11,509 nucleotides of DNA from a virus (Duplodnaviria > Heunggongvirae > Uroviricota > Caudoviricetes). Location: IMG/VR virus record IMGVR_UViG_648276665_000003, positions 1 to 11,509 of that record. One strand, written 5' to 3'. This document shows, piece after piece, positions 1 through 11,509 of this stretch (its first letter is position 1; each line of letters begins with the position of its first letter). The position numbers were made by a program, and so were the translations under genes. The notes under the pieces are model-generated. The model was not told the DNA's origin. It made no database searches and saw only the letters and a program-made list of their open reading frames with translations.

Positions 1-24
1 GGGGGGGGGGGGGGTTTTTTTTAT
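1..24. other. Homopolymer run (G x15 then T x9) at the window edge; probable sequencing or assembly artefact
   Basis: Directly visible: 'GGGGGGGGGGGGGGGTTTTTTTTT' at the very start of the window, unlike any neighbouring sequence. Confidence 0.5.
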
Positions 25-107
25 CAATCACTTACATCAGTTTCCGTAAGAAAACAGTAACTTAAGAAAACCTATAAGGGACTGGAAGGGCTACAAAGTT
101 CTGAGAG

Positions 108-128
108 TGTGGACACTATGTGGACACT
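108..128 (+). repeat. Tandem direct repeat TGTGGACACT (108-117 and 119-128), putative Int arm-type binding sites of the att arm
   Basis: Two perfect 10-bp copies 11 bp apart centre to centre, lying just beyond the 3' end of int. As I recall, P2 Int arm sites are direct repeats resembling TGTGGACA. Confidence 0.4.
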
Positions 129-140
129 CAGAAGGGAAAT

Positions 141-1121
141 TTATAACGTCACTCCGCCTTTTAGAGGATTCAGCGCGACGGCATTTTGCAGGTAGTCAGG
201 CGCAAGGTGCGCATAGGCCATCGTCTGCTGAATGCTCGCATGTCCCAGAATCTGTTGCAGTGCGATTATATTGCCCCCATTCATCATGAAATGGCTTGCG
301 AATGTATGCCGCAGGATGTGGGTTGCCTGATTGGGTGGTATATCTGGCTTCACTCTGCGTAAAATCCCGCAAAACTTCTCATAATCAACTTTGAATAATT
401 TAGCGCTGGCCTCCTCTTTAACTTTTTTCTCCAGTTCCTCAGAAATCGGCACGGTTCGCTTTTTACCGTTTTTGGTTTTCAGGAAGGTAACCCTGCAATT
501 TGTAATCTGTGCTGGTTTTAGCGTGGCAACTTCCGTCCATCTTCCTCCAGTGCTCAGACATAAAAGTGCGACAAGTAAGTCATCACCATCCAAAACATTT
601 AACAGTTTTTCGATTTCTGCTTTTTCCAGGAACGTCATTTCAGGGTTGGCCTCCGCCAGTGGCGGCAGTCCGTGAATTGGGTGTTGCCCGGAAAATTCAT
701 CCAATTGAATTAATTTTGTGAACATGCCGGATAATCGGTACATGTCACGGTTTATCGTTGCGGCACTGATACCATTTCGTAGTCGCATGGAACGATAATC
801 CATCAAAGCTCTTTTGCTCATCCGGCTCACTGGTATATCACCTATGCCGCTGATGGTTTTGAGCAGATGATTAAACTCTTTTGTTCCATGCTCGTGGTTT
901 TGCCCGTGATATTTCCACCAGATGTCCAGCAACTCACTCAAAGTTCTGCGATCTGCTCGCTGACCTGCCCATTCTTTCTGGCTGGCGTAGGCGATTGTGT
1001 ATCGCTCAAATGCTACAGCCTCAGCTTTTCTTTCAAATTTCCTGCGGATGCGTTTTCCGTCGCGACCGCGAGGTCTAATGTCCACTTCATAGCGTCCATC
1101 ATCGAGCTTCTTAATTGACAT
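141..1121 (-). CDS. int: Tyrosine site-specific integrase, P2 Int family
   Basis: C-terminal catalytic region with 'HILRHTFASHF' (HxxR box) and 'TMAYAHL' (catalytic Tyr). The N-terminus 'MSIKKLDDGRYEVDIRP' is P2-Int-like. I take the ATG at 1121 as the start because GAGGG sits 7 nt upstream; the longest ORF begins at 1151 with no Shine-Dalgarno. Confidence 0.9.
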   Translation of the reverse strand: MSIKKLDDGRYEVDIRPRGRDGKRIRRKFERKAEAVAFERYTIAYASQKEWAGQRADRRTLSELLDIWWKYHGQNHEHGTKEFNHLLKTISGIGDIPVSRMSKRALMDYRSMRLRNGISAATINRDMYRLSGMFTKLIQLDEFSGQHPIHGLPPLAEANPEMTFLEKAEIEKLLNVLDGDDLLVALLCLSTGGRWTEVATLKPAQITNCRVTFLKTKNGKKRTVPISEELEKKVKEEASAKLFKVDYEKFCGILRRVKPDIPPNQATHILRHTFASHFMMNGGNIIALQQILGHASIQQTMAYAHLAPDYLQNAVALNPLKGGVTL

Positions 1122-1190
1122 AAGAAAGCCCTCTGACGCTGTATTCACCATCTTGGTAACAAATGGTGAAAATGTAATGTTTATAGAGTG

Positions 1191-1484
1191 TTAACCAGTC
1201 TGTTTTTCGGAGCGGTCTGATTCTGTTGGTTTTTGCCCAATGTGTGCGAGAGCCGGCGCGATCTGACCAGCTTGTGGTGACGTATCACCAGTCATTAACC
1301 AGAGCGTATATTTTTTAAATAAAGGCGTATTTGTGACTCGCATAACGATGCTGAGACCAGGGTCTTTATGCCCACTTTCGTAATTTTTGACTGTTCCTAG
1401 AGCTATCCCGCTAATTTCGCTGAATTTCGCCTGTGTTAAGCCTTCTGCTTTCCTAATCGCTTTCAGTTTTTCGAATGTCTGCAT
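1191..1484 (-). CDS. C: Immunity repressor, P2 C-like (HTH)
   Basis: 97 aa with an N-terminal helix-turn-helix ('LTQAKFSEISGIALGTVKNYESG') and a C-terminal 'YTLWLMTG...QIAPALAH' resembling P2 C. It lies immediately upstream of int on the same strand and is divergent from cox. Confidence 0.8.
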   Translation of the reverse strand: MQTFEKLKAIRKAEGLTQAKFSEISGIALGTVKNYESGHKDPGLSIVMRVTNTPLFKKYTLWLMTGDTSPQAGQIAPALAHIGQKPTESDRSEKQTG

Positions 1485-1513
1485 TTGACAGTAACCTATT
1501 GGTGACTTATATT
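1485..1513 (+). promoter_or_regulatory. Putative early promoter Pe (sigma70-like): -35 TTGACA (1485-1490), 17-bp spacer, -10 TATATT (1508-1513)
   Basis: Consensus -35 and near-consensus -10 with 17-bp spacing, oriented toward cox and abutting the C start codon, as in the P2 immunity switch. Confidence 0.55.
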
Positions 1514-1540
1514 CCCGTCAAAAGGTTGTGTATTGGTGAC
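1497..1540 (+). promoter_or_regulatory. Direct repeat TATTGGTGAC (1497-1506 and 1531-1540); putative C-repressor operator half-sites
   Basis: Two perfect 10-bp direct repeats 34 bp apart. The first lies in the Pe spacer and the second just downstream of the -10. P2 C binds direct repeats flanking Pe, though the spacing here differs from what I recall for P2. Confidence 0.4.
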
Positions 1541-1636
1541 CTTTTGAGTGTGTTAGCCAGTCCCTAGAAAGGACAGGGGCGACCTAGAAGGGGCTGGATC
1601 TAATAAGGGTAACACGAAAGCAAAAAGGGCTAATCA

Positions 1637-1909
1637 ATGGAAGTCAATGACTATGTGATTCAGTACCCGATTGATGCGGTACATACGGTTAAGTTTGCAG
1701 AGTTACTTGGTAAGCCAGAAACGGCTGTAGTCAAGATGGTAAAAGAGAATAAATTGCCAGTTATTGAGCTTCGTGATCCAAGTAAGCCGAACGCTCGTGT
1801 CGGTGAGAAGTGGGTTTTCATTCCAGAGTTTAATCGCGCTGTACGAGAGGCGTTTTATAACCGACCAGTTGAACAGCGTGATGCATGGCTTTTGTGGATG
1901 GGGTTGTGA
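1637..1909 (+). CDS. cox: Cox-like excisionase / early-operon regulator
   Basis: 90 aa, first gene after Pe and divergent from C, the same size class and position as P2 Cox. ATG preceded by AAGGG. Confidence 0.7.
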   Translation: MEVNDYVIQYPIDAVHTVKFAELLGKPETAVVKMVKENKLPVIELRDPSKPNARVGEKWVFIPEFNRAVREAFYNRPVEQRDAWLLWMGL

Positions 1910-1911
1910 TT

Positions 1912-2082
1912 ATGAGTGAACCGCGTTGTATTGCTCAGTTACTGCGTAACGAAAGCCCCAGGGCGATTGACTTCACCATCACCCACGGTAAGGGGCGTAA
2001 GGGAATCATTATCCGCACCAAAAAACAGAGTCCGTTAAAAAAGGCTCTGACCTTTCTGAAAAGCCGGAGGGTCTGGAAATGA
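1912..2082 (+). CDS. Small early-operon protein of unknown function (position of P2 orf78)
   Basis: ATG at 1912 is 3 nt after the cox stop, and its stop overlaps the start of the next gene (ATGA at 2079-2082). The ORF track extends it to 1885, overlapping cox. Confidence 0.5.
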   Translation: MSEPRCIAQLLRNESPRAIDFTITHGKGRKGIIIRTKKQSPLKKALTFLKSRRVWK

Positions 2083-2579
2083 CAGTGATGACGCTCAATC
2101 TCGTCGAAAAACAGCCAGCAGCTATGCGCCGGATAATTGGTAAGCATCTTGCCGTCCCTCGCTGGCAGGATACATGTGATTATTATAATCAGATGATGGA
2201 GCGCGAACGGCTAACAGTTTGCTTTCATGCGCAGTTAAAACAACGTCACGCAACGATGCGTTTTGAAGAAATGAACGACGTCGAACGTGAACGGCTGGTT
2301 TGTGCAATTGATGAATTGCGTGGGGCATTCTCAAAACGCCGTCAGGTTGGCGCAAGTGAGTATGCATATATTAGTTTTTTAACAGTCAGTCAGCGTCGTA
2401 CTTTATTTATGCATGCCGGATTGACTGAAAAAGAATTCAATCAGCCATACTGGCGAATTAATGAAGAGTCATGTTACTGGCGTGATGCTTTATTCCGTGC
2501 ATTACGTGAACTATTCAGTCTGTTTGAGTATGCACCGACAATTCTGACGTCGGTAAAACCAGAGCAATATTTGCATTAA
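2079..2579 (+). CDS. B: Replication protein B-like
   Basis: 166 aa, the same length as P2 gpB as I recall, at the expected position between cox/orf78 and A. Translationally coupled to the upstream ORF. Confidence 0.6.
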   Translation: MTVMTLNLVEKQPAAMRRIIGKHLAVPRWQDTCDYYNQMMERERLTVCFHAQLKQRHATMRFEEMNDVERERLVCAIDELRGAFSKRRQVGASEYAYISFLTVSQRRTLFMHAGLTEKEFNQPYWRINEESCYWRDALFRALRELFSLFEYAPTILTSVKPEQYLH

Positions 2580-2600
2580 ATAATTAACCAGAGTTTTTAA

Positions 2601-2629
2601 CGCACTTAATCGTGCGGGGCTTCTTTTTG
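2601..2629 (+). terminator. Weak hairpin plus T-tract after B (possible attenuator)
   Basis: Stem CGCAC / GTGCG (2601-2605 and 2612-2616) with a 6-nt loop, followed by 'CTTCTTTTT'. The stem is short, so this is weak. Confidence 0.2.
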
Positions 2630-2642
2630 CCTGGAGAAAGTC

Positions 2643-2867
2643 ATGCATACAGTTTCTGAAAATCAGTGCGGTAAATACGCATTACTGCTGCAACAGGCCA
2701 GAACCGAAGCACAGGCCGACGCTGCGACGCGCTTTTCTTCTCATCTTGACGCCATGATTCGCCATATCACAAAGGCGGAGTTATCCCGCGTGGAGATAGT
2801 CGAGCTGCTCAGTCAGGAGTCGGAAAAATTTCACAATATCGGATTGTCTCGCGGGGAGGTGCTTTGA
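2643..2867 (+). CDS. Small early protein of unknown function (position of P2 orf80)
   Basis: 74 aa; ATG preceded by GGAGAAAG. Its stop overlaps the next start. Confidence 0.55.
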
Positions 2868-3166
2868 TGTCCTGTTCTCATTCAGTTGTATTACTGAATA
2901 ACGCCTTAAAAATCGCCGTTATGGAAAATGGTGATTTGTCTCTTATTCAACTTTGTCTTAATAAAGAAAAACGCGACATAACTGAATCTGTTATCGCGAT
3001 TTATCAGAATGAATTAAACCTCCTGTCTGATGTGGTCAATTTACTTGTTAAACGCGCTGTGTTCCACAAGCAAATTTCCTCAGTGGATGAACTGACAAAA
3101 TTAACGACAGAACTCGCCAGTTATTGCGCTGATGTATCCAGGAAACTTAACGATAAAAGGAGCTGA
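2867..3166 (+). CDS. Small early protein of unknown function (position of P2 orf81)
   Basis: ATG at 2867 overlaps the upstream stop (TGATG) and has GGAGG 7 nt upstream. The ORF-track start at 2864 is a TTG. Confidence 0.55.
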   Translation: MSCSHSVVLLNNALKIAVMENGDLSLIQLCLNKEKRDITESVIAIYQNELNLLSDVVNLLVKRAVFHKQISSVDELTKLTTELASYCADVSRKLNDKRS

Positions 3167-3168
3167 TA

Positions 3169-3393
3169 ATGCCGGACAACGTAGATTTTATTCAGGAACA
3201 ACAGGCTGAATTACTGGAGCGCCAGATTAACGCGGCAAGGGTAAAACATTGCGGTGTTTCTTCGCTGGTTTGCGAAGAGTGTGATGCGCCAATACCTGCT
3301 GCCCGTCGTGCGGCTTATCCGTCAGCCACGCGTTGTGTTTCCTGTCAGTCAGTCTTTGAAGCAAAAAACAAACATTACCGGAGAACGGCATGA
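3169..3393 (+). CDS. TraR/DksA-type C4 zinc-finger protein (position of P2 orf82)
   Basis: 74 aa with 'CEECDAPIP...' and 'CVSCQ' (CxxC...CxxC). Strong Shine-Dalgarno AAAGGAG. Confidence 0.65.
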   Translation: MPDNVDFIQEQQAELLERQINAARVKHCGVSSLVCEECDAPIPAARRAAYPSATRCVSCQSVFEAKNKHYRRTA

Positions 3394-3665
3394 GTATTCG
3401 TATTGAAATTGGCGAACGTTATGTCGTTACCAGTGACAGCTTTCAGTTTATTCTCCACGAGAAAAAGAGAGCGGAAAGCGGTAAAAACGCCGGTCAGGAA
3501 TGGCTGTCGGTGGTTGGTTATTACCCGAAATTAAGCCAGCTCGTTTCCGGCCTGATGCATCACGATATTCTGACCGGAAGCGCAAAATCTTTTGCCGATT
3601 TAAACGCGCAGGTTGAGCAACTCAGCAAGCGTTGTTCAGAGGCTTTTGGCTCATATGGACGTTAA
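3390..3665 (+). CDS. Small early protein of unknown function (position of P2 orf83)
   Basis: 91 aa; its ATG overlaps the upstream stop (ATGA), and its 3' end overlaps the start of gene A. Confidence 0.55.
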   Translation: MSIRIEIGERYVVTSDSFQFILHEKKRAESGKNAGQEWLSVVGYYPKLSQLVSGLMHHDILTGSAKSFADLNAQVEQLSKRCSEAFGSYGR

Positions 3666-5952
3666 AGCCTCCGGGCGTTTTGTCCCTCCGTCAGCATTTG
3701 CCGCAGGTACCGGTAAGACGTTTACCGGTGCTTATGCATGGAACGCGCCACGCGAGGCTGTCGGGCGCGAAAGACCCCTTACACGTGACGAGATGCGTCA
3801 GGTGCAAGGTGTTTTATCCACGATTAACCGTCTGCCTTACTTTTTGCGCTCGCTGTTTACTTCACGTTATGACTACATCCGGCGCAATAAAAGCCCGGTG
3901 CACGGGTTTTATTTCCTCACATCCACTTTTCAGCGTCGCTTATGGCCGCGCATTGAGCGCGTGAATCAGCGCCATGAAATGAACACCGACGCGTCGTTGC
4001 TGTTTCTGGCAGAGCGTGACCATTATGCGCGCCTGCCTGGAATGAATGACAAGGAGCTGAAAAAGTTTGCCGCCCGTATCTCATCGCAGCTTTTCATGAT
4101 GTATGAGGAACTCTGCGATGCATGGGTGGATGCGCATGGCGAAAAAGAATCGCTGTTTACGGATGAGGCGCAGGCTCACCTCTATGGTCATGTTGCTGGC
4201 GCTGCACGTGCTTTCAATATTTCCCCTCTCTACTGGAAAAAATACCGTAAAGGACAGATGACCACGAGGCAGGCATATTCTGCCATTGCCCGTCTGTTTA
4301 ACGATGAGTGGTGGACTCATCAGCTTAAAGGCCAGCGTATGCGCTGGCATGAGGCGTTACTGATTGCTGTCGGGGAGGTCAATAAAGACCGTTCTCCTTA
4401 TGCCAGTAAACATGCCATTCGTGATGTGCGTGCACGCCGCCAGGCAAATCTGGAATTTCTTAAATCGTGTGATCTCGAAAACAGGGAAACAGGCGAGCGC
4501 ATCGACCTTATCAGTAAGGTGATGGGCAGTATTTCTAATCCTGAAATTCGCCGGATGGAGCTGATGAACACCATTGCCGGTATTGAGCGTTACGCCGCCG
4601 CAGAGGGTGATGTGGGGATGTTTATCACGCTGACCGCGCCGTCAAAGTATCACCCGACACGTCAGGTTGGAAAAGGCGAAAGTAAAACCGTCCAGCTAAA
4701 TCACGGCTGGAACGATGAGGCATTTAATCCAAAGGATGCGCAGCGTTATCTCTGCCGTATCTGGAGCCTGATGCGCACGGCATTCAAGGATAATGATTTA
4801 CAGGTCTACGGTTTGCGAGTCGTCGAGCCACACCACGACGGAACGCCGCACTGGCATATGATGTTTTTTTGTAATCCACGCCAGCGTAACCAGATTATCG
4901 AAATCATGCGTCGCTATGCGCTCAAAGAGGATGGCGACGAAAGAGGAGCCGCGCGAAACCGTTTTCAGGCAAAACATCTTAATCGGGGCGGTGCTGCGGG
5001 GTATATCGCGAAATACATCTCAAAAAATATCGACGGCTATGCACTGGATGGGCAGCTCGATAACGATACCGGCAGACCGCTGAAAGATACTGCCGCGGCT
5101 GTTACCGCATGGGCGTCAACGTGGCGCATTCCGCAATTTAAAACGGTTGGCCTGCCGACAATGGGGGCTTACCGTGAACTACGCAAATTGCCTCGCGGCG
5201 TCAGCATTGCTGATGAGTTTGACGAGCGCGTCGAGGCTGCACGCGCCGCCGCAGACAGTGGTGATTTTGCGCTGTATATCAGCGCGCAGGGTGGGGCAAA
5301 TGTCCCGCGCGATTGTCAGACTGTCAGGGTCGCCCGTAGTCCGTCGGATGAAGTTAACGAGTACGAGGAAGAAGTCGAGAGAGTGGTCGGCATTTACGCG
5401 CCGCATCTCGGCGCGCGTCATATTCATATCACCAGAACGACGGACTGGCGCATTGTTCCGAAAGTGCCGGTCGTTGAGCCTTTGACTTTAAAAAGCGGCA
5501 TCGCCGCGCCTCGGAGTCCTGTCAATAACTGTGGAAAGCTCACCAGCGGTGATACTTCGTTACCGGCTCCCACGCCTTCTGAGCACGCCGCAGCAGTGCT
5601 TAATCTGGTTGATGACGGTGTTATCGAATGGAATGACCCGGAGGTCGTGAGGGCGCTCAGGGGCGCATTAAAACACGGGCTGAGAACACCAAATCGTCAG
5701 CAGAGAAACGGAAGCCCGTTAAAACAGTATGAAATGGCACCATCGGCCAGACTGACCCGGTCGGAACGAATGCAAATTACCCGTATCCGCGTTGACCTCG
5801 CTCAGAACGGTATCAGGCCGCAGCGATGGGAGCTTGAGGCGCTGGCGCGTGGGGCGACCGTAAATTATGACGGGAAACATTTTACTTATCAGGTCGCTGA
5901 TGAGTGGCCGGGATTCTCAACAGTATTAGAGTCAAACTCAGTGAAGCGTTAA
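3655..5952 (+). CDS. A: Rolling-circle replication initiator (HUH endonuclease), P2 gpA family
   Basis: HUH motif 'TPHWHMMFF' and tandem-tyrosine motif 'YIAKYISK'. I take the ATG at 3655 ('MDVKASGRF...'), giving 765 aa against about 761 for P2 gpA; the ORF-track start at 3613 is a TTG. Confidence 0.9.
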   Translation: MDVKASGRFVPPSAFAAGTGKTFTGAYAWNAPREAVGRERPLTRDEMRQVQGVLSTINRLPYFLRSLFTSRYDYIRRNKSPVHGFYFLTSTFQRRLWPRIERVNQRHEMNTDASLLFLAERDHYARLPGMNDKELKKFAARISSQLFMMYEELCDAWVDAHGEKESLFTDEAQAHLYGHVAGAARAFNISPLYWKKYRKGQMTTRQAYSAIARLFNDEWWTHQLKGQRMRWHEALLIAVGEVNKDRSPYASKHAIRDVRARRQANLEFLKSCDLENRETGERIDLISKVMGSISNPEIRRMELMNTIAGIERYAAAEGDVGMFITLTAPSKYHPTRQVGKGESKTVQLNHGWNDEAFNPKDAQRYLCRIWSLMRTAFKDNDLQVYGLRVVEPHHDGTPHWHMMFFCNPRQRNQIIEIMRRYALKEDGDERGAARNRFQAKHLNRGGAAGYIAKYISKNIDGYALDGQLDNDTGRPLKDTAAAVTAWASTWRIPQFKTVGLPTMGAYRELRKLPRGVSIADEFDERVEAARAAADSGDFALYISAQGGANVPRDCQTVRVARSPSDEVNEYEEEVERVVGIYAPHLGARHIHITRTTDWRIVPKVPVVEPLTLKSGIAAPRSPVNNCGKLTSGDTSLPAPTPSEHAAAVLNLVDDGVIEWNDPEVVRALRGALKHGLRTPNRQQRNGSPLKQYEMAPSARLTRSERMQITRIRVDLAQNGIRPQRWELEALARGATVNYDGKHFTYQVADEWPGFSTVLESNSVKR

Positions 5953-6035
5953 CTCAATCAATAGGAGTTTATAAGTTAGGCCTCGAGATTTTGTAGAAAG
6001 GGATGTATACTGAGCATCGTATAGATTTGGAGTGA

Positions 6036-7061
6036 ATGATGACTGTAAAGGTGATAGACCTTTTTTGTGGTGCTGGCGGATTAACTCATGGTTTACAGCT
6101 TGCGGGGCTTGATGTCGTTGCAGGCATAGACCTTGAGGGGGAATGTCGGTTTCCCTATGAAAGAAACAATAAATCTAAGTTTATTGAGCAAGATATCGCT
6201 AAAGTAACAAAAGAGGAACTGCTGAGGCTTTATGGTGATGCGTCTGTAAAAGTATTGGCAGGATGCGCACCTTGCCAACCTTTTTCAAAATATACTCAAG
6301 GAAAAGATAAGGCTGATGATAAAAAATGGCCTCTTCTTTATGAGTTCGAACGTTTAATTCGCGAAGTATCTCCAGAAATCGTAACAATGGAGAACGTTCC
6401 TGATGTAACTAAACATAAAGTTTATAATGATTTTTATAATTCATTGTTAAAGTTGGGCTATTATGTTTGGGCGTCGAAGGTTGATTGTGTCGAATATGGA
6501 ATCCCACAAAACCGTTCCCGTCATGTATTGTTGGCTTCAAAATTGGGGGCGATTGAGTTAGTAAAACGTGACGATGTTATTTTGAAAACAGTTAGAGATG
6601 CAATAGGAAATCTTCCTCCGTTAGAAGATGGCCAAACAGATCCAAATGATATATTACATAGAGCCAGTAAATTAAATCCGATTAATAAAAAAAGAATTAT
6701 ACACTCTGTTCCTGGTGGTACATGGAAGGACTGGCCGAAGGAGCTGATTGCTGCTTGTCATATGAAATCTAGCGGTAAAGGATATGCTAGTGTATATGGG
6801 CGCATGTCTTGGGATAAGCCAAGTCCAACAATTACAACTCTTTGTTATGGTTTCGGAAATGGACGTTTTGGACATCCAGAACAGCATAGAGCGATTTCTC
6901 TTAGAGAGGCTGCTTTATTGCAAACTTTTCCGATGGATTATATCTTTGTAGAAGACAAAGACAAGTTTGTTATAAGAAGTATTGGGAAAATGATAGGTAA
7001 TGCTGTTCCTGTGGAACTAGGAAAAGCAATTGGGCAATCAATCAAGAACCATTTAGAATGA
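6036..7061 (+). CDS. DNA (cytosine-5)-methyltransferase
   Basis: Canonical C5-MTase motifs in order: I 'DLFCGAGG', IV 'GCAPCQPFS' (catalytic PC), VI 'TMENVPD', VIII 'QNRSRHVL', X-like 'GNAVPV'. Shine-Dalgarno GGAG 6 nt upstream. The gene is AT-rich (about 35% GC in sampled stretches) against roughly 50% in the flanking phage genes. Confidence 0.9.
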   Translation: MMTVKVIDLFCGAGGLTHGLQLAGLDVVAGIDLEGECRFPYERNNKSKFIEQDIAKVTKEELLRLYGDASVKVLAGCAPCQPFSKYTQGKDKADDKKWPLLYEFERLIREVSPEIVTMENVPDVTKHKVYNDFYNSLLKLGYYVWASKVDCVEYGIPQNRSRHVLLASKLGAIELVKRDDVILKTVRDAIGNLPPLEDGQTDPNDILHRASKLNPINKKRIIHSVPGGTWKDWPKELIAACHMKSSGKGYASVYGRMSWDKPSPTITTLCYGFGNGRFGHPEQHRAISLREAALLQTFPMDYIFVEDKDKFVIRSIGKMIGNAVPVELGKAIGQSIKNHLE

Positions 7062-7067
7062 TAAAAT

Positions 7068-7084
7068 GGCCTGCTTTGCAGGCC
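7068..7084. terminator. Bidirectional rho-independent terminator between the convergent MTase gene and DUF262 operon
   Basis: Perfect 7-bp stem GGCCTGC / GCAGGCC with a TTT loop, flanked by A/T-rich runs on both sides, between the stops at 7061 (+) and 7091 (-). Confidence 0.6.
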
Positions 7085-7090
7085 TTATTA

Positions 7091-7771
7091 CTATTGTTCT
7101 AAATATTCATTATTATTTATATAGTGCTCTATATTATTCGCGATTGCATCAAGATAGGCGATTACTTCTAATGAAATATTCTCTAAGTCCTGATATGAAA
7201 CATTTTTTCCAATCTCAGCAAATGATACATTGCCATGAGATAAATCATTACGATGTTGTTTGACAGTGGCTAATTTTTCACCATGTTTAGTGTGAGTGTA
7301 ATCAGAATATGTTGAAAAACCATATATTTTCGATTTTTCTTTGATTTCCTCTCTATCAATATTTCCTGAGAATATTTTCTTTTTGTTGAAAGTGCCATAA
7401 GATATACCGCAAGATATACCTTTAGTAAGACGGTTAACTAAACTTTCAATATTTACAGATTCATTTTTTAATCTTTTTAATATTTCTGACCTGATATTTT
7501 TCCTGAGTTTGTCAAATTCTACGTTTCTATCATAAATAGTCTCATGAATAAGGCAGATAGCTTCTCTCATTGTTGATTCAATGAGGTTATATAATAGAAT
7601 ATATACTGCCCCCTTTAGAGTTTTTCGTGATTGAGCAGTAATGGAGAACTTATGTTCTTTATCATCAGATGATATCAGTTCTGCACCGGCATACTCAATA
7701 AATTTCAAAAGATCTAAATAGGCCAAGATCTCTCCTGACCTTTCGTCAAAATCCTCACGAAAACGATCCAT
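7091..7771 (-). CDS. Hypothetical protein with C-terminal Rx4H motif (HEPN-like, putative RNase effector); second gene of the DUF262 operon
   Basis: 226 aa with 'QHRNDLSHG' (R-x4-H) about 45 residues from the C-terminus, where HEPN catalytic motifs sit. The start codon is 1 nt after the DUF262 stop, with Shine-Dalgarno GAGGAT. Very AT-rich. The HEPN assignment is from the motif only. Confidence 0.6.
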   Translation of the reverse strand: MDRFREDFDERSGEILAYLDLLKFIEYAGAELISSDDKEHKFSITAQSRKTLKGAVYILLYNLIESTMREAICLIHETIYDRNVEFDKLRKNIRSEILKRLKNESVNIESLVNRLTKGISCGISYGTFNKKKIFSGNIDREEIKEKSKIYGFSTYSDYTHTKHGEKLATVKQHRNDLSHGNVSFAEIGKNVSYQDLENISLEVIAYLDAIANNIEHYINNNEYLEQ

Positions 7772-7772
7772 G

Positions 7773-8915
7773 TTAATCCTCTAATAATTTATCCCGAACA
7801 TATTCAATTCGTTCAATTACCTTCACGCGACTATTAGCTCCGTCTGAAGTGGTCAATCGTTTGAATTCTTCTGAGCTTAGCCAATCCAAGTTCTTGGGAA
7901 CAAGGTCAGGGATTTCACGTAATGCAAGTGCTGCGCCAACAGCGAGAGATTCGAATCTAACTCGAGGTGTAGATTTTGCAGTAATAGTTTTCTTGAATCC
8001 TGCTGGGAAATAGTTATCAACAAAAGATAGAACATTAGCAAACTCTTGTTTCATTGAGTTTTGTTTAGTTTCGTCTATATCTCGATTTTCTAACATATAG
8101 TCATTTAGAAAATCCCGTACGGAATGATCAAAGTTCTTGTACTTATCTAAGTAGGCAAAAAATCTTAATGTAAATTCTAACCGTTCATCTCGTTTTTCTT
8201 TAGTCTGAGATAAAGGTGCTAATTCTTTAAATTTAGGTATTGTTGAGCATGGCTTAATAACCTGTGTATATAAATTTGTTGAACCAAGTTCTGATCCTTT
8301 ACGGACTTCCATATCTTTCAATATATCGCTGCCAGAGTTAATACGTTCAAAAAGATCTCTACGGGTTTCTTCATTGCATTTAGAACTCAATTCTATAACG
8401 CGGACAGGAATTCTCATGAAACGACGTTGACGTGATAATGGTAAATCTTGGAATTTGAAACCATTAAGGGCGTCTAAAGATTTCAGATCTTGTAAAACTA
8501 ATTCATTTTGGATAAAAGCGTGTATAGTCCTAACTCGCTGTGAGCCATCAACAATCTCAATTCGCCCATCTAAATCGGGATCTTCGGAGAGAACATCTGC
8601 TGTAAATATATATGGTATAGGAAAACCCAAAATCAAAGACTCTATCAATCTTGATTGTCTTTTTTCACTCCAAACAAAATCCCTTTGATAATCAGGAACA
8701 AAGAGTTCGTTAGTATCATCCTCTAATCCGCTATGATACTTATTAACTAATAACTCAACGGTAAATTCTTTGGTCTCAAAATCCACATCCTTTTGCTCAG
8801 CACGAATTTGCTCTTCAGCGTTTTGCTTTATCACCTCTAGCTGAGCAAGCAACTCTGCTCTTTTCTTGGCATTATCTTCATTTTCTAGTTGAGATTTTAA
8901 ATCAATAATGTCCAT
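7773..8915 (-). CDS. DUF262 (ParB/GmrS-like NTP-binding) domain protein; first gene of a two-gene operon
   Basis: DUF262 signature blocks 'VPDYQRDFVW', 'LIESLILGFPIP' and 'DGSQRVRTI' (DGQQR-type). The likely start is the ATG at 8915 with AGGGAG 6 nt upstream; the ORF track extends to a TTG at 8933. There is no recognisable fused His-Me/HNH (DUF1524) domain. Confidence 0.8.
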   Translation of the reverse strand: MDIIDLKSQLENEDNAKKRAELLAQLEVIKQNAEEQIRAEQKDVDFETKEFTVELLVNKYHSGLEDDTNELFVPDYQRDFVWSEKRQSRLIESLILGFPIPYIFTADVLSEDPDLDGRIEIVDGSQRVRTIHAFIQNELVLQDLKSLDALNGFKFQDLPLSRQRRFMRIPVRVIELSSKCNEETRRDLFERINSGSDILKDMEVRKGSELGSTNLYTQVIKPCSTIPKFKELAPLSQTKEKRDERLEFTLRFFAYLDKYKNFDHSVRDFLNDYMLENRDIDETKQNSMKQEFANVLSFVDNYFPAGFKKTITAKSTPRVRFESLAVGAALALREIPDLVPKNLDWLSSEEFKRLTTSDGANSRVKVIERIEYVRDKLLED

Positions 8916-9100
8916 GTCTAGCTCCCTTAACAAGTGTTAAAAATTGAAGCGGATAGCATACCGCATAGATCATGAAAAATGCCATCATGTGCATGGATTT
9001 GCATGCGTCAGAAGTCGCTTTTATTGTTAGTTATCACTAGCGATGGTGTGCTCTTGGAGTGTTCATGCAACTGCATTAAAAATGCCCCATGAAGCGGGCG

Positions 9101-9119
9101 GGCGAGGCGGGGAAAGCAC
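9101..9119. other. cos site: 19-nt cohesive-end sequence of P2/186/P4-type phages
   Basis: Exact match to 'GGCGAGGCGGGGAAAGCAC', which I recall as the P2/P4 cohesive end. It lies between the end of the early region and gene Q, as in P2. Confidence 0.75.
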
Positions 9120-9261
9120 TGCGCGCTGGCGGTGGTGCTGATTTTATTTTTTCAGCGTCTGAGCGCGTCTTGATGGCGTTTAGATTGTGCGCCGGGGCGT
9201 TGGTGTGTCTGCGGGGTGTTTTGTGCGGTGGTGAGCGTGTGAGGGCGTGATGACGGGGTGT

Positions 9262-9283
9262 AAAAAAGCCGCCCGCAGGCGGC
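9262..9283 (-). terminator. Rho-independent terminator downstream of Q
   Basis: On the minus strand: stem GCCGCC / GGCGGC with a 4-nt loop followed by TTTTTT (plus strand 'AAAAAAGCCGCCCGCAGGCGGC'), immediately 3' of the Q stop. Confidence 0.6.
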
Positions 9284-9288
9284 GATGT

Positions 9289-10323
9289 TCAGCCGTTGTC
9301 AGTGTCCAGTGAGTAGTTTTTAAAGCGGATGACCTCCTGGCCGAGCCAGCCGTTTATTTCCCGAATCCTGTCCTGTAACGGGATAAGCTCATTGCGGACA
9401 AAGACCTTTGCCACTTTCTCAATATCACCCAGCGACCCGACGTTCTCCGGCTTGCCCCCCATCAACTGAAAGGGGATGCGGTGCGCGTCCAGCAGGTCAG
9501 CGGCGCTGGCTTTTTTGATATTAAAAAAATCGTCCTTCGTTGCCACTTCACTGAGCGGGATAATTTTAATGCCGTCGGCTTTCCCCTGCGGGGCATAGAG
9601 AAACAGATTTTTAAAGTTATTGCGGCCTTTTGACTTAACCATGTTTTCGCGAAGCATTTCGATATCGTTGCGGTCCTGCACGGCATCGGTGACGTACATG
9701 ATGTATCCGGCATGTGCGCCGTTTTCGTAATACTTGCGGCGGAACAGCGTGGCCGACTCATTCAGCCAGGCAGAGTTAAGGGCGCTGAGATATTCCGGCA
9801 GGCCGTACAGCTCCTGATTAATATCAGGCTCCAGCAGGTGAAACACGGAGCCGGGCGCGAAGGCTGTCGGCTCGTTGAAGGACGGCACCCACCAGTAAAC
9901 ATCCTCCTCCACGCCACGACGGGTATATTTGGCCGGTGAGGTTTCCAGTCTGATGACCTTACCGGTGGTGCTGTAACGCTTTTCCAGAAACGCATTACCG
10001 AACACCAGAAAATCCAGCACAAAGCGGCTGAAATCCTGCTGGGAAAGCCACGGATGCGGGATAAATGTCGAGGCCAGAATATTGCGTTTGACGTAAATCG
10101 GGGAGCTGTGATGCACGGCAGCACGCAGGCTTTTTGCCAGACCGGTAAAGCTGACCGGTGGCTCATACCATCTGCCGTTACTGATGCACTCAACGTAATC
10201 CAGAATGTCACGGCGGTCGAGTACCGGCACCGGCTCACCAAAGGTGAATGCCTCCATTTTCGGGGCGCTGGCGGTCATTTTTTTTGCCGCAGGTTGCGGT
10301 GTTTTCCCTTTTTTCTTGCTCAT
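9289..10323 (-). CDS. Q: Portal protein, P2 gpQ-like
   Basis: 344 aa, the same as P2 gpQ as I recall. It is the first gene after cos on the complementary strand, and its ATG overlaps the stop of the upstream terminase fragment (TGATG). Confidence 0.8.
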   Translation of the reverse strand: MSKKKGKTPQPAAKKMTASAPKMEAFTFGEPVPVLDRRDILDYVECISNGRWYEPPVSFTGLAKSLRAAVHHSSPIYVKRNILASTFIPHPWLSQQDFSRFVLDFLVFGNAFLEKRYSTTGKVIRLETSPAKYTRRGVEEDVYWWVPSFNEPTAFAPGSVFHLLEPDINQELYGLPEYLSALNSAWLNESATLFRRKYYENGAHAGYIMYVTDAVQDRNDIEMLRENMVKSKGRNNFKNLFLYAPQGKADGIKIIPLSEVATKDDFFNIKKASAADLLDAHRIPFQLMGGKPENVGSLGDIEKVAKVFVRNELIPLQDRIREINGWLGQEVIRFKNYSLDTDNG

Positions 10324-10592
10324 CAGTAAAACTCCAGAATGGTGGATGTCAGCGGGGTGCTGATACCGGCGGTGAGTGGCTCATTTAACAGGGCGTGCAT
10401 GGTCGCCCAGGCGAGGTCGGCGTGGCTGGCTTCCTCGCTGCGGCTGGCCTCATAGGTGGCGCTGCGTCCGCTGCTGGTCATGGTCTTGCGGATAGCCATA
10501 AACGAGCTGGTGATGTCGGTGGCGCTGACGTCATATTCCAGACAGCCACGGCGGATGACGTCTTTTGCCTTGAGCACCATTGCGGTTTTCAT
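10323..10592 (-). pseudogene. P: C-terminal fragment of the terminase ATPase subunit (P2 gpP-like); the 5' portion is missing
   Basis: The reading frame directly upstream of Q with stop/start overlap extends only about 90 codons before running into antisense FI sequence and a stop at 10716-10718; gpP should be about 590 aa. Identity rests on position. Confidence 0.55.
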
Positions 10593-10621
10593 TTCCGGCG
10601 TGTAACCGTACCTGCTCCGAT

Positions 10622-10969
10622 GACCCGCTGTTCCTCTTTGAAAACTACACCCGCACCGCGCAGGTGCTGGCCGACACGATGGCTGAGGCGCACATGTGGG
10701 CGGTGGACAAGCCCATCACCGCAACGCTGATTCGCGACATCGTTGACGGCATCAATGCCAAATTCCGTGAGCTGAAAACAAACGGCTATATCGTGGATGC
10801 GACCTGCTGGTTCAGCGAAGAATCCAACGATGCGGAAACCCTCAAGGCCGGAAAACTGTATATCGACTACGACTATACCCCGGTGCCTCCTCTTGAAAAC
10901 CTGACCCTGCGCCAGCGTATTACCGATAAATACCTGGCAAATCTGGTCACCTCGGTTAACAGCAATTAA
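10622..10969 (+). pseudogene. FI: C-terminal fragment of the tail sheath protein (P2 gpFI-like); the 5' portion is missing
   Basis: Open frame ending '[11 protein letters not shown]' immediately upstream of FII, with no plausible start or Shine-Dalgarno; about 115 codons against about 396 for intact gpFI. The fragment start is approximate. Confidence 0.55.
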
Positions 10970-10981
10970 GGAGCCTGACCG

Positions 10982-11500
10982 ATGGCAATGCCGCGCAAAC
11001 TCAAGTTAATGAACGTCTTTCTGAACGGCTACAGCTATCAGGGCGTCGCGAAGTCCGTCACGCTGCCAAAACTGACCCGTAAGCTCGAAAACTATCGCGG
11101 TGCGGGGATGAACGGCAGCGCACCGGTAGACCTCGGCCTTGATGACGATGCGCTGTCAATGGAGTGGTCGCTCGGGGGCTTCCCGGATTCGGTTATCTGG
11201 GAGCTTTACGCCGCAACCGGTGTGGATGCTGTGCCGATTCGTTTTGCAGGCTCTTACCAGCGTGACGATACCGGCGAAACGGTGGCCGTCGAAGTGGTCA
11301 TGCGTGGACGTCAGAAAGAAATCGACACCGGCGAGGGTAAACAGGGAGAAGACACTGAGTCGAAAATCTCCGTGGTCTGCACCTATTTCCGGCTGACGAT
11401 GGACGGTAAGGAGCTGGTCGAAATCGACACCATCAACATGATTGAGAAGGTGAACGGCGTCGACCGGCTGGAGCAACACCGCCGCAATATCGGCCTGTGA
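10982..11500 (+). CDS. FII: Tail tube protein, P2 gpFII-like
   Basis: 172 aa, the same as P2 gpFII as I recall, with strong Shine-Dalgarno TAAGGAG. It follows the FI fragment in the FI-FII order. Confidence 0.75.
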   Translation: MAMPRKLKLMNVFLNGYSYQGVAKSVTLPKLTRKLENYRGAGMNGSAPVDLGLDDDALSMEWSLGGFPDSVIWELYAATGVDAVPIRFAGSYQRDDTGETVAVEVVMRGRQKEIDTGEGKQGEDTESKISVVCTYFRLTMDGKELVEIDTINMIEKVNGVDRLEQHRRNIGL

Positions 11501-11509
11501 TTTTCATCC

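Follow-up and report, generated by a model that had tools for sequence, protein, structure and literature searches.

A sequence-intact P2/P4-type cos site in a defective P2-like prophage

A cos site is the sole sequence required in cis for packaging by the machinery of phage P2. Deletion of cos from P2 abolishes the phage's own packaging, and an induced P2 lysogen packages a pUC-based plasmid with a cos from P4, yielding about 1e9 to 2e9 transducing units per mL. Packaging at cos constrains genome size; P4 cosmids of 4.7 and 8.7 kb enter 11.6-kb heads as monomers, one of 3 kb is not packaged, and a P2 head can hold three P4 genomes at low efficiency. The interval between genes A and Q is a known hotspot with rapid swapping of defence cassettes, and defective P2-like elements with homologues of defence genes have already been documented, their status being an open question in the literature. 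Defective prophages that have lost virion genes but not the signals for excision, replication, and packaging are termed proto-hitchers, and another phage may provide the structural proteins for their transfer (de Sousa et al. 2024). Both the proto-hitcher concept and the occurrence of defence genes in defective P2-like elements are thus part of the existing literature.

The element described here was analyzed in a stretch of 11,509 nt of viral DNA (referred to as the window) that contains the left arm of an integrated P2-like prophage. It has the gene order of P2 (NC_001895), int-C-cox-B-A-hotspot-cos-Q-P, with the same 19-nt cohesive end, a nearly equal distance between cos and Q, and conserved flanks, and its B, A, Q, and FII are 97 to 100% identical to their P2 counterparts. 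It differs from P2 in lacking the 5' part of P, all of O, N, M, L, X, Y, K, lysABC, R, S, V, W, J, I, H, and G, and the 5' part of FI, together with all four Ogr-dependent promoters. It also differs in its int/C/cox module, which is 45 to 52% identical to that of P2, in its att site, which is the cpxP terminator, and in its cargo, which is a Dcm/HEPN/DUF262 cassette compared with old/tin in P2.

With P4 and P4-like satellites, the element shares the 19-nt cos and a cos core of ~55 bp, the absence of capsid genes, an integrase and replication functions of its own, and a defence hotspot adjoining cos. In contrast to them, it arose recently by deletion from a phage of the helper type and does not form an independent lineage, and at 16.5 kb, compared with 11.6 kb for P4, it exceeds the small P4 capsid. 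No analogues of sid, psu, delta, epsilon, or the alpha-type primase were found in its ORF inventory or by a Pfam scan. Engineered P2/P4 cosmids (pACK57 and P4cos-5/-8) illustrate how such an element could work, being circles in which cos is the sole packaging determinant, with P2 terminase and capsids acting in trans and under-length monomers tolerated. Cosmids, however, are multicopy free circles, whereas the element is one integrated, repressed copy that would need to be excised first; it would at most function as a natural P2 cosmid that is present in one copy and brings an integration module of its own. What the element has lost and kept also matches the proto-hitchers of the E. coli O157 Sakai pool of defective prophages, although those cases are backed by induction and packaging experiments (de Sousa et al. 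2024) and the element is known here from sequence alone. We consider it probable that its cos is authentic and sequence-intact, has been kept passively in a recent defective P2-like (Peduovirus) prophage, and makes the element a potential proto-hitcher and not an evolved satellite.

The cos site and the genes that remain

The 19-nt cohesive-end sequence GGCGAGGCGGGGAAAGCAC is present in the window as a single copy with 0 mismatches. In a shuffle control, 0 of 200 shuffles matched this sequence even when up to 3 mismatches were allowed, giving a chance expectation of none. The 19-mer exactly matches the cosL/cosR annotated in P2 and nucleotides 1 to 19 of P4, and its first base in the window aligns with the first base of the linear GenBank records of P2, Wphi, L-413C, fiAA91-ss, 186, PSP3, and EtG. 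As in P2, it is flanked by the A-proximal hotspot on one side and by the 3' end of the portal gene Q on the other, with 188 nt from the start of cos to the Q stop codon (at 9289) compared with 186 nt in P2. We delimited a conserved cos core by a four-way alignment of the window with the circularised ends of P2, P4, and 186 (Table 1). From -60 to +100, the sequence does not differ from that of the intact sibling prophage of E. coli NH-21 and shows 98% identity to that of the plaque-forming phages vB_YpM_50 and 9W, while the interval from -15 to +41 shows 100% identity to the plaque-forming phage vB_EcoM-720R8. By every sequence criterion tested, the 19-mer belongs to the P2/P4 cos family, and a sequence-only reading of the window, which had reported an intact 19-nt cos of this type adjoining Q, was accurate in this respect.

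The exact 19-mer is also retained in 10 of 10 other degraded P2-like prophages that we examined, indicating that retention of cos is the default when Q is kept. In three degraded relatives (L007, 11396-13818; L008, 11460-13152; L014, 11366-12232), the exact 19-mer and Q are 0.9 to 2.5 kb apart and separated by one or two ORFs, one of which encodes a 753-aa protein without a Pfam match. Cargo can therefore also occupy the Q side of cos.

Table 1. Coordinates of features in the window (strand: +, -, or. where none applies)
Feature	Position	Strand	Description
attL core, right-hand part	1..25	.	Bases 15-25 (TTTTTTTTATC) genuine; bases 1-14 poly-G artefact
Two arm-type repeats TGTGGAC	108..125	+	At 108 and 119; presumed Int arm-binding sites of attL
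Tyrosine integrase (int)	141..1151	-	Full length, 336-aa ORF (326 aa as annotated in relatives); 52% identical to P2 Int
Immunity repressor C	1191..1484	-	97 aa, HTH_3; 45% identical to P2 C
Cox excisionase/repressor	1637..1909	+	90 aa; 45% identical to P2 Cox
Replication gene B	2079..2579	+	166 aa; 99.4% identical to P2 B
Replication initiator A, contains ori	3655..5952	+	765 aa, Phage_GPA; 97% identical to P2 A
ori nick-site 20-mer, inside A	5502..5521	+	Exact copy of P2 29881-29900; sequence match to NC_001895
Cargo gene 1, C-5 cytosine DNA methyltransferase (Dcm)	6036..7061	+	
Cargo gene 2, HEPN_MAE_28990-family protein	7091..7771	-	226 aa
Cargo gene 3, DUF262/GmrSD_N protein	7773..8915	-	PADLOC NsnA (2e-54), PD-T4-2_A (5e-35)
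Conserved cos core	9072..9145	+	About -29 to +26 around the 19-mer; common to P2, P4, 186
cos, 19-nt cohesive-end sequence	9101..9119	+	
Rho-independent terminator 3' of Q	9262..9283	-	P2 tQ homologue; P2 annotates tQ at 160-181
Portal gene Q, intact	9289..10323	-	344 aa; 99.4% identical to P2 Q
Terminase ATPase gene P remnant	10323..10604	-	Last 93 codons and stop codon (282 nt)
Deletion junction, GTA microhomology	10602..10604	.	P ...GGCGTGTA / ACCGTACC... FI
Tail-sheath gene FI remnant	10605..10969	+	3' 365 nt
Tail-tube gene FII, intact	10982..11500	+	100% identical to P2 FII

The window is a whole contig between scaffold gaps. Using the 96-aa FI' ORF, we located the corresponding scaffold, GG773309.1 of assembly GCA_000164455.1 (L027), which is 100% identical to the window over an overlap of 10,831 nt and has gaps at 10832-10961 and 15959-16035. 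Beyond the end of the window at 11509, the genes E, E', T, U, D, and ogr follow on this scaffold, and after them attR and the host gene fieF. After correction for the gaps, the element measures 16,515 bp (~16.5 kb), corresponding to 49% of P2 (33.6 kb) and 142% of P4 (11.6 kb). It is integrated at the cpxP terminator/fieF site and has kept both att sites, int, C, cox, B, A with ori, the Dcm/HEPN/DUF262 cargo, cos, and ogr.

No remaining whole gene has decayed, and Int, C, Cox, B, and A are all encoded by full-length ORFs. Given the low identity of C to its P2 counterpart and the operator repeats of the immunity region, which differ from those of P2, we expect that P2 would not be repressed and that the element is heteroimmune to it. 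Comparison with attL and attR of two further loci (L001 and L002) places the att core at 47 bp within the cpxP terminator hairpin (GACACCATCCCTGTCTTCCCCCACATGATGTGGGGGTTTTTTTTATC). The poly-G run that opens the window is an assembly artefact replacing this hairpin inside the att core; on the L027 scaffold, attR has the same 25-mer after a 77-N scaffold gap, and a poly-C/N/poly-G block there is likewise an artefact. The TGTGGAC pair recurs at attR (L027 15862 and 15873), so that both element ends carry it, and by analogy with the architecture of P2 attP these repeats are presumed to be binding sites for the arm-type contacts of Int.

The three cargo genes occupy the A-Q hotspot. The HEPN protein is without a PADLOC model, and the exact protein is recorded in 6,576 database blocks; all 10 of the contexts listed are intact P2-like prophages at cpxP.

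Extent, origin, and distribution of the deletion

Compared with the intact prophage of E. coli NH-21, to which it shows 99.8% identity over window positions 10 to 10604, the element lacks a segment of 14,541 bp. That segment runs from the 5' part of P through O, N, M, L, X, the lysis genes, R, S, V, W, J, I, and the fibre genes to the 5' part of FI. One microhomology-mediated deletion of ~14.5 kb fused the 3' ends of P and FI, and the sequence across this P-FI junction in the window is TTTCCGGCGTGTAACCGTACCTG. The baseplate genes are also within the lost segment. The earlier description of the structural genes as largely deleted therefore holds for the head, terminase, lysis, baseplate, and fibre functions, but not for Q, FII, E, E', T, U, and D, all of which remain. 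By P2 annotation, the four Ogr-dependent late promoters (PP, PO, PV, and PF) are all within the deleted segment, which leaves Q and the remaining tail genes, including FII, promoterless. A viable Peduovirus is marked by complete modules for the head, terminase, lysis, and tail and by Ogr-dependent late promoters, a combination that the element lacks.

An 89-aa C-terminal terminase ORF (Terminase_6C; 10323-10592, minus strand) lies next to Q and is recorded as a called gene in 794 blocks of the database. In phage 186, an additional terminase-like ORF naturally separates the portal and terminase genes. Such a P fragment might conceivably have a function, for example by interfering with incoming terminase. 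A P2-type terminase gene ~90% identical to that of E. coli P2 was seen on a contig labelled Vagococcus sp. (Firmicutes) (L033, 4846-4869), a label that is probably due to contamination or a mislabelled assembly.

The P-FI junction is known from its source assembly only. It was found in 0 of 5,426 complete E. coli genomes, a 23-mer spanning it gave 0 matches among the GTDB representative genomes (one genome per species), and the 129-aa junction-spanning ORF has no database record. Because the junction occurs in no other genome among these, there is no sign of spread, and the same element was not seen in unrelated genomes, as it would be in a lineage that spreads independently. Since its ORFs are intact and its cargo proteins match exactly those encoded by intact prophages that are very common, the element appears to be a recent derivative of a common phage.

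The same features could also be read as domestication, with the deletion selected, the lysis and virion genes removed, a useful defence cassette kept, and cos, Q, the P remnant, and the tail genes persisting as neutral leftovers. The lysis genes and all late promoters have indeed been lost while the cargo is intact, and the defective P2-like elements with defence homologues described by others provide precedents. However, no decay is seen in Int, Cox, A, B, or Ogr, the single known genome allows no test of conservation, and a difference of only 0.2% from the intact relative corresponds to too little time for purifying or relaxed selection to show. We regard domestication as unlikely and favor passive retention of cos in a newly defective prophage.

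A reused breakpoint in the terminase gene

The endpoint of the deletion within P follows ...TTCCGGYGTGTA (window 10593-10604; L001 29595), corresponding to P2 nt 1502. This endpoint is reused, exactly or within 1 nt, by at least 10 different deletions in E. coli genomes and metagenomes, and the loci with the P breakpoint comprise L007 to L011, L014 to L016, L058, L063, L068, L071, and L072. A look-up of the 89-aa P' ORF led to ten different degraded P2-like prophages. In eight of the ten, which include three att sites, C and T alleles, and varied cargo, P is broken at the same site as in the window. Seven of these eight breaks follow ...CATTTCCGG(C/T)GTGTA (P2 nt 1502), and the remaining one (L009) is one nucleotide earlier. 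The partners of the eight breaks all differ, being located in J, M, I, FI (two sites), the 3' part of FI, P itself, and fibre-gene variants, and a pattern search anchored at the site identified further partners in U, H, and P. Among complete E. coli genomes, 13 of 5,426 carry one of 14 junction types, with 1 to 4 genomes per type. A 120-nt probe centred on the site was partly covered in 16 of 1,593 genomes, compared with 4 of 1,514 for a control probe from the middle of P; a control probe from Q, a more divergent region, was partly covered in 10 of 1,638 genomes.

The nine partner sites that could be mapped have G at -4 (8 of 9), T at -2 (9 of 9), A at -1 (8 of 9), and C at +2 (8 of 9). The resulting consensus is G-N-T-A/N-C, where the slash marks the crossover, which always falls in or directly after TA. 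One of the breakpoint junctions is without any microhomology. Control junctions in the same loci have ordinary, varied microhomologies, and we therefore rejected GNTANC as a rule for all prophage deletions.

Several explanations for the fixed endpoint were considered and set aside. Any break within ~48 nt upstream of the site would give the same P' ORF, so a bias in ORF calling cannot account for one exact nucleotide, and the endpoints of all 8 of the 8 broken loci agree to within 1 nt. Slippage from one ancestral junction would account only for the window, L002, L003, and L011, with their TAAC(CG) repeats, and fails for the partners in J, M, I, H, U, and P itself. A hairpin is equally unconvincing as the cause: the 8-bp inverted repeat at the site has weak fold z-scores (-0.8 and -2.1) and a loop of 36 to 41 nt, and divergent P alleles do not conserve its right arm. 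Inspection by eye showed no convincing likeness to the A-protein nick site, cos, the P2 attP core, Chi, or known IS, transposase, or recombinase motifs. The sole resemblance is to the attP core of P2, which has a CGTGTA block in common with the site, and the integrases of the prophages concerned differ. Most of the matches to the site pattern in IMG/VR and metagenomes are not junctions but intact, divergent P alleles with a synonymous change. A search of IMG/VR for reciprocal junctions, using the leftward-deletion pattern, gave 0 matches.

Other endpoints recur as well. The FI endpoint of the window (10605; P2 nt 18477-18480) is found again in L002, L011, L015, L016, and L029, an endpoint at P2 nt 12127 in gene I is found in both L015 and L063, and one directly after GGATAAC in gene P (P2 nt 1457) is found in L002 and L003.

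The exact reuse of the P breakpoint elsewhere shows that the deletion in the window was not a purely random decay event. It could conceivably be one product of a site-specific breakage-joining reaction in P, in which case the palindromic hexamer G-N-T-A/N-C would suggest a dimeric enzyme that makes a 2-nt or precise cut. We consider such a reaction rather doubtful. The reused breakpoint is nevertheless the only part of this analysis that might be new, and it is one that a specialist would not expect.

Possible packaging by a helper and fate of the cargo

Every requirement for transfer that is visible in the sequence is intact, namely, Int, Cox, B, A, ori, Ogr, both att sites, and cos. The element has the general makeup of a satellite or hitcher, in that it lacks capsid genes, has integration and replication functions of its own, and carries a packaging signal of the helper type. 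The sequence-only reading had listed int, replication genes, and cos in the absence of capsid genes, and had proposed that excision and packaging in trans by a P2-like helper are possible in principle. The ORFs, att sites, ori, and cos confirm the first statement, and the second is consistent with the intact sites and genes, the heteroimmunity to P2, and the packaging of plasmids that carry nothing but cos. The comparison with capsid capacities that it had called for gave a divided answer, since 16.5 kb is too large for the small P4 capsid, whereas a dimer of 33.0 kb would come close to the 33.6-kb genome of P2. Considering that under-length P4 cosmids are packaged, a 16.5-kb circle would also be within the tolerated under-length range. 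Packaging of the element by a helper is therefore physically plausible.

We infer the following course of events. In the resident state, cos would be idle. The element would have to be derepressed, excised by its own Int and Cox, and circularised, and a heteroimmune P2-like phage in the same cell would have to supply terminase, proheads, tails, and lysis. P2-type terminase should then cut the element and package it as either a half-filled monomer or a full-length dimer.

P2-type prophages do not respond to SOS induction, the A protein of P2 is cis acting, and monomeric circles are the preferred substrate of P2 terminase. Taken together with repression of the early operon by C, these properties suggest that a packageable substrate would arise only after rare spontaneous derepression, and if all three hold, a helper may never meet one. 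In addition, the commonest relatives able to superinfect share the immunity type of the element and hence would be repressed.

These considerations bear on the suggestion of the sequence-only reading, offered there as speculation, that the element could spread its defence cargo like a satellite. In its full form, infection by a P2-like phage would lead to excision, packaging through cos into helper capsids, and spread at a biologically meaningful rate. In its favor, every cis and trans requirement is present, cos alone suffices for packaging by the P2 machinery, two copies of the element (33.0 kb) match the P2 genome, P4 multimers in P2 heads are documented, and P2 is heteroimmune. However, the element consists of ordinary P2 genes plus cargo, with no genes for sensing a helper, redirecting its capsid, or exploiting it in other ways. 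Its late promoters are gone, its excision would still require release from its own non-inducible C repressor, and its junction is found in one assembly only. Sibling deletions with the same left endpoint vary in size between 0.6 and 20.8 kb and show no clustering around sizes that could be packaged. A P2-type repressor such as C is not expected to be relieved by a helper. Immunity and exclusion have, moreover, been described as a bottleneck for proto-hitchers (2024 review, de Sousa et al.). We conclude that satellite-like spread is improbable, and this part of the sequence-only reading was not borne out.

The cargo could instead escape without the element being packaged at all. By recombining through the A and cos-Q flanks, a superinfecting or co-resident P2-like phage could take up the Dcm/HEPN/DUF262 cassette in a complete genome, and cos would then matter merely as part of the right-hand homology arm. 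The flanks are 96 to 99% identical to those of many P2-like phages, the A-to-Q interval is a hotspot for exchange of defence cassettes, temperate phages acquire DNA from defective prophages by recombination (PMC3945230), and the same cargo is present in thousands of intact prophages. This marker rescue concerns the fate of the cargo, however, and not the identity of the 19-mer, and it is compatible with passive retention of an authentic cos. Tentatively, we give it, along with the reduced role for cos that it entails, appreciable but less than even weight as an account of the element. Within the reading that we prefer, of a potential proto-hitcher with a passively kept cos, escape of the cargo by homologous recombination is at least as likely as packaging.

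The cos of this defective P2-like prophage was thus correctly recognised, while transfer by a helper is an already published idea for which the element bears no supporting signature. If a site-specific reaction underlies the breakpoint in P, P2-like phages would repeatedly shed terminase- and capsid-less derivatives that always keep cos, the early genes, and int, and such derivatives might arise during lytic growth and reach new hosts in the capsids of their siblings. Enzymatic reuse of the breakpoint would represent a new source of prophage decay. The element itself provides a concrete natural test case, at ~16.5 kb half the size of its helper, with all excision, replication, and packaging functions, no capsid, and heteroimmunity to P2. 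It could be used to gauge how often newly defective prophages are rescued by their relatives, a rate that bears on the origins of satellites and on the continued mobility of defence cassettes in the P2 hotspot.
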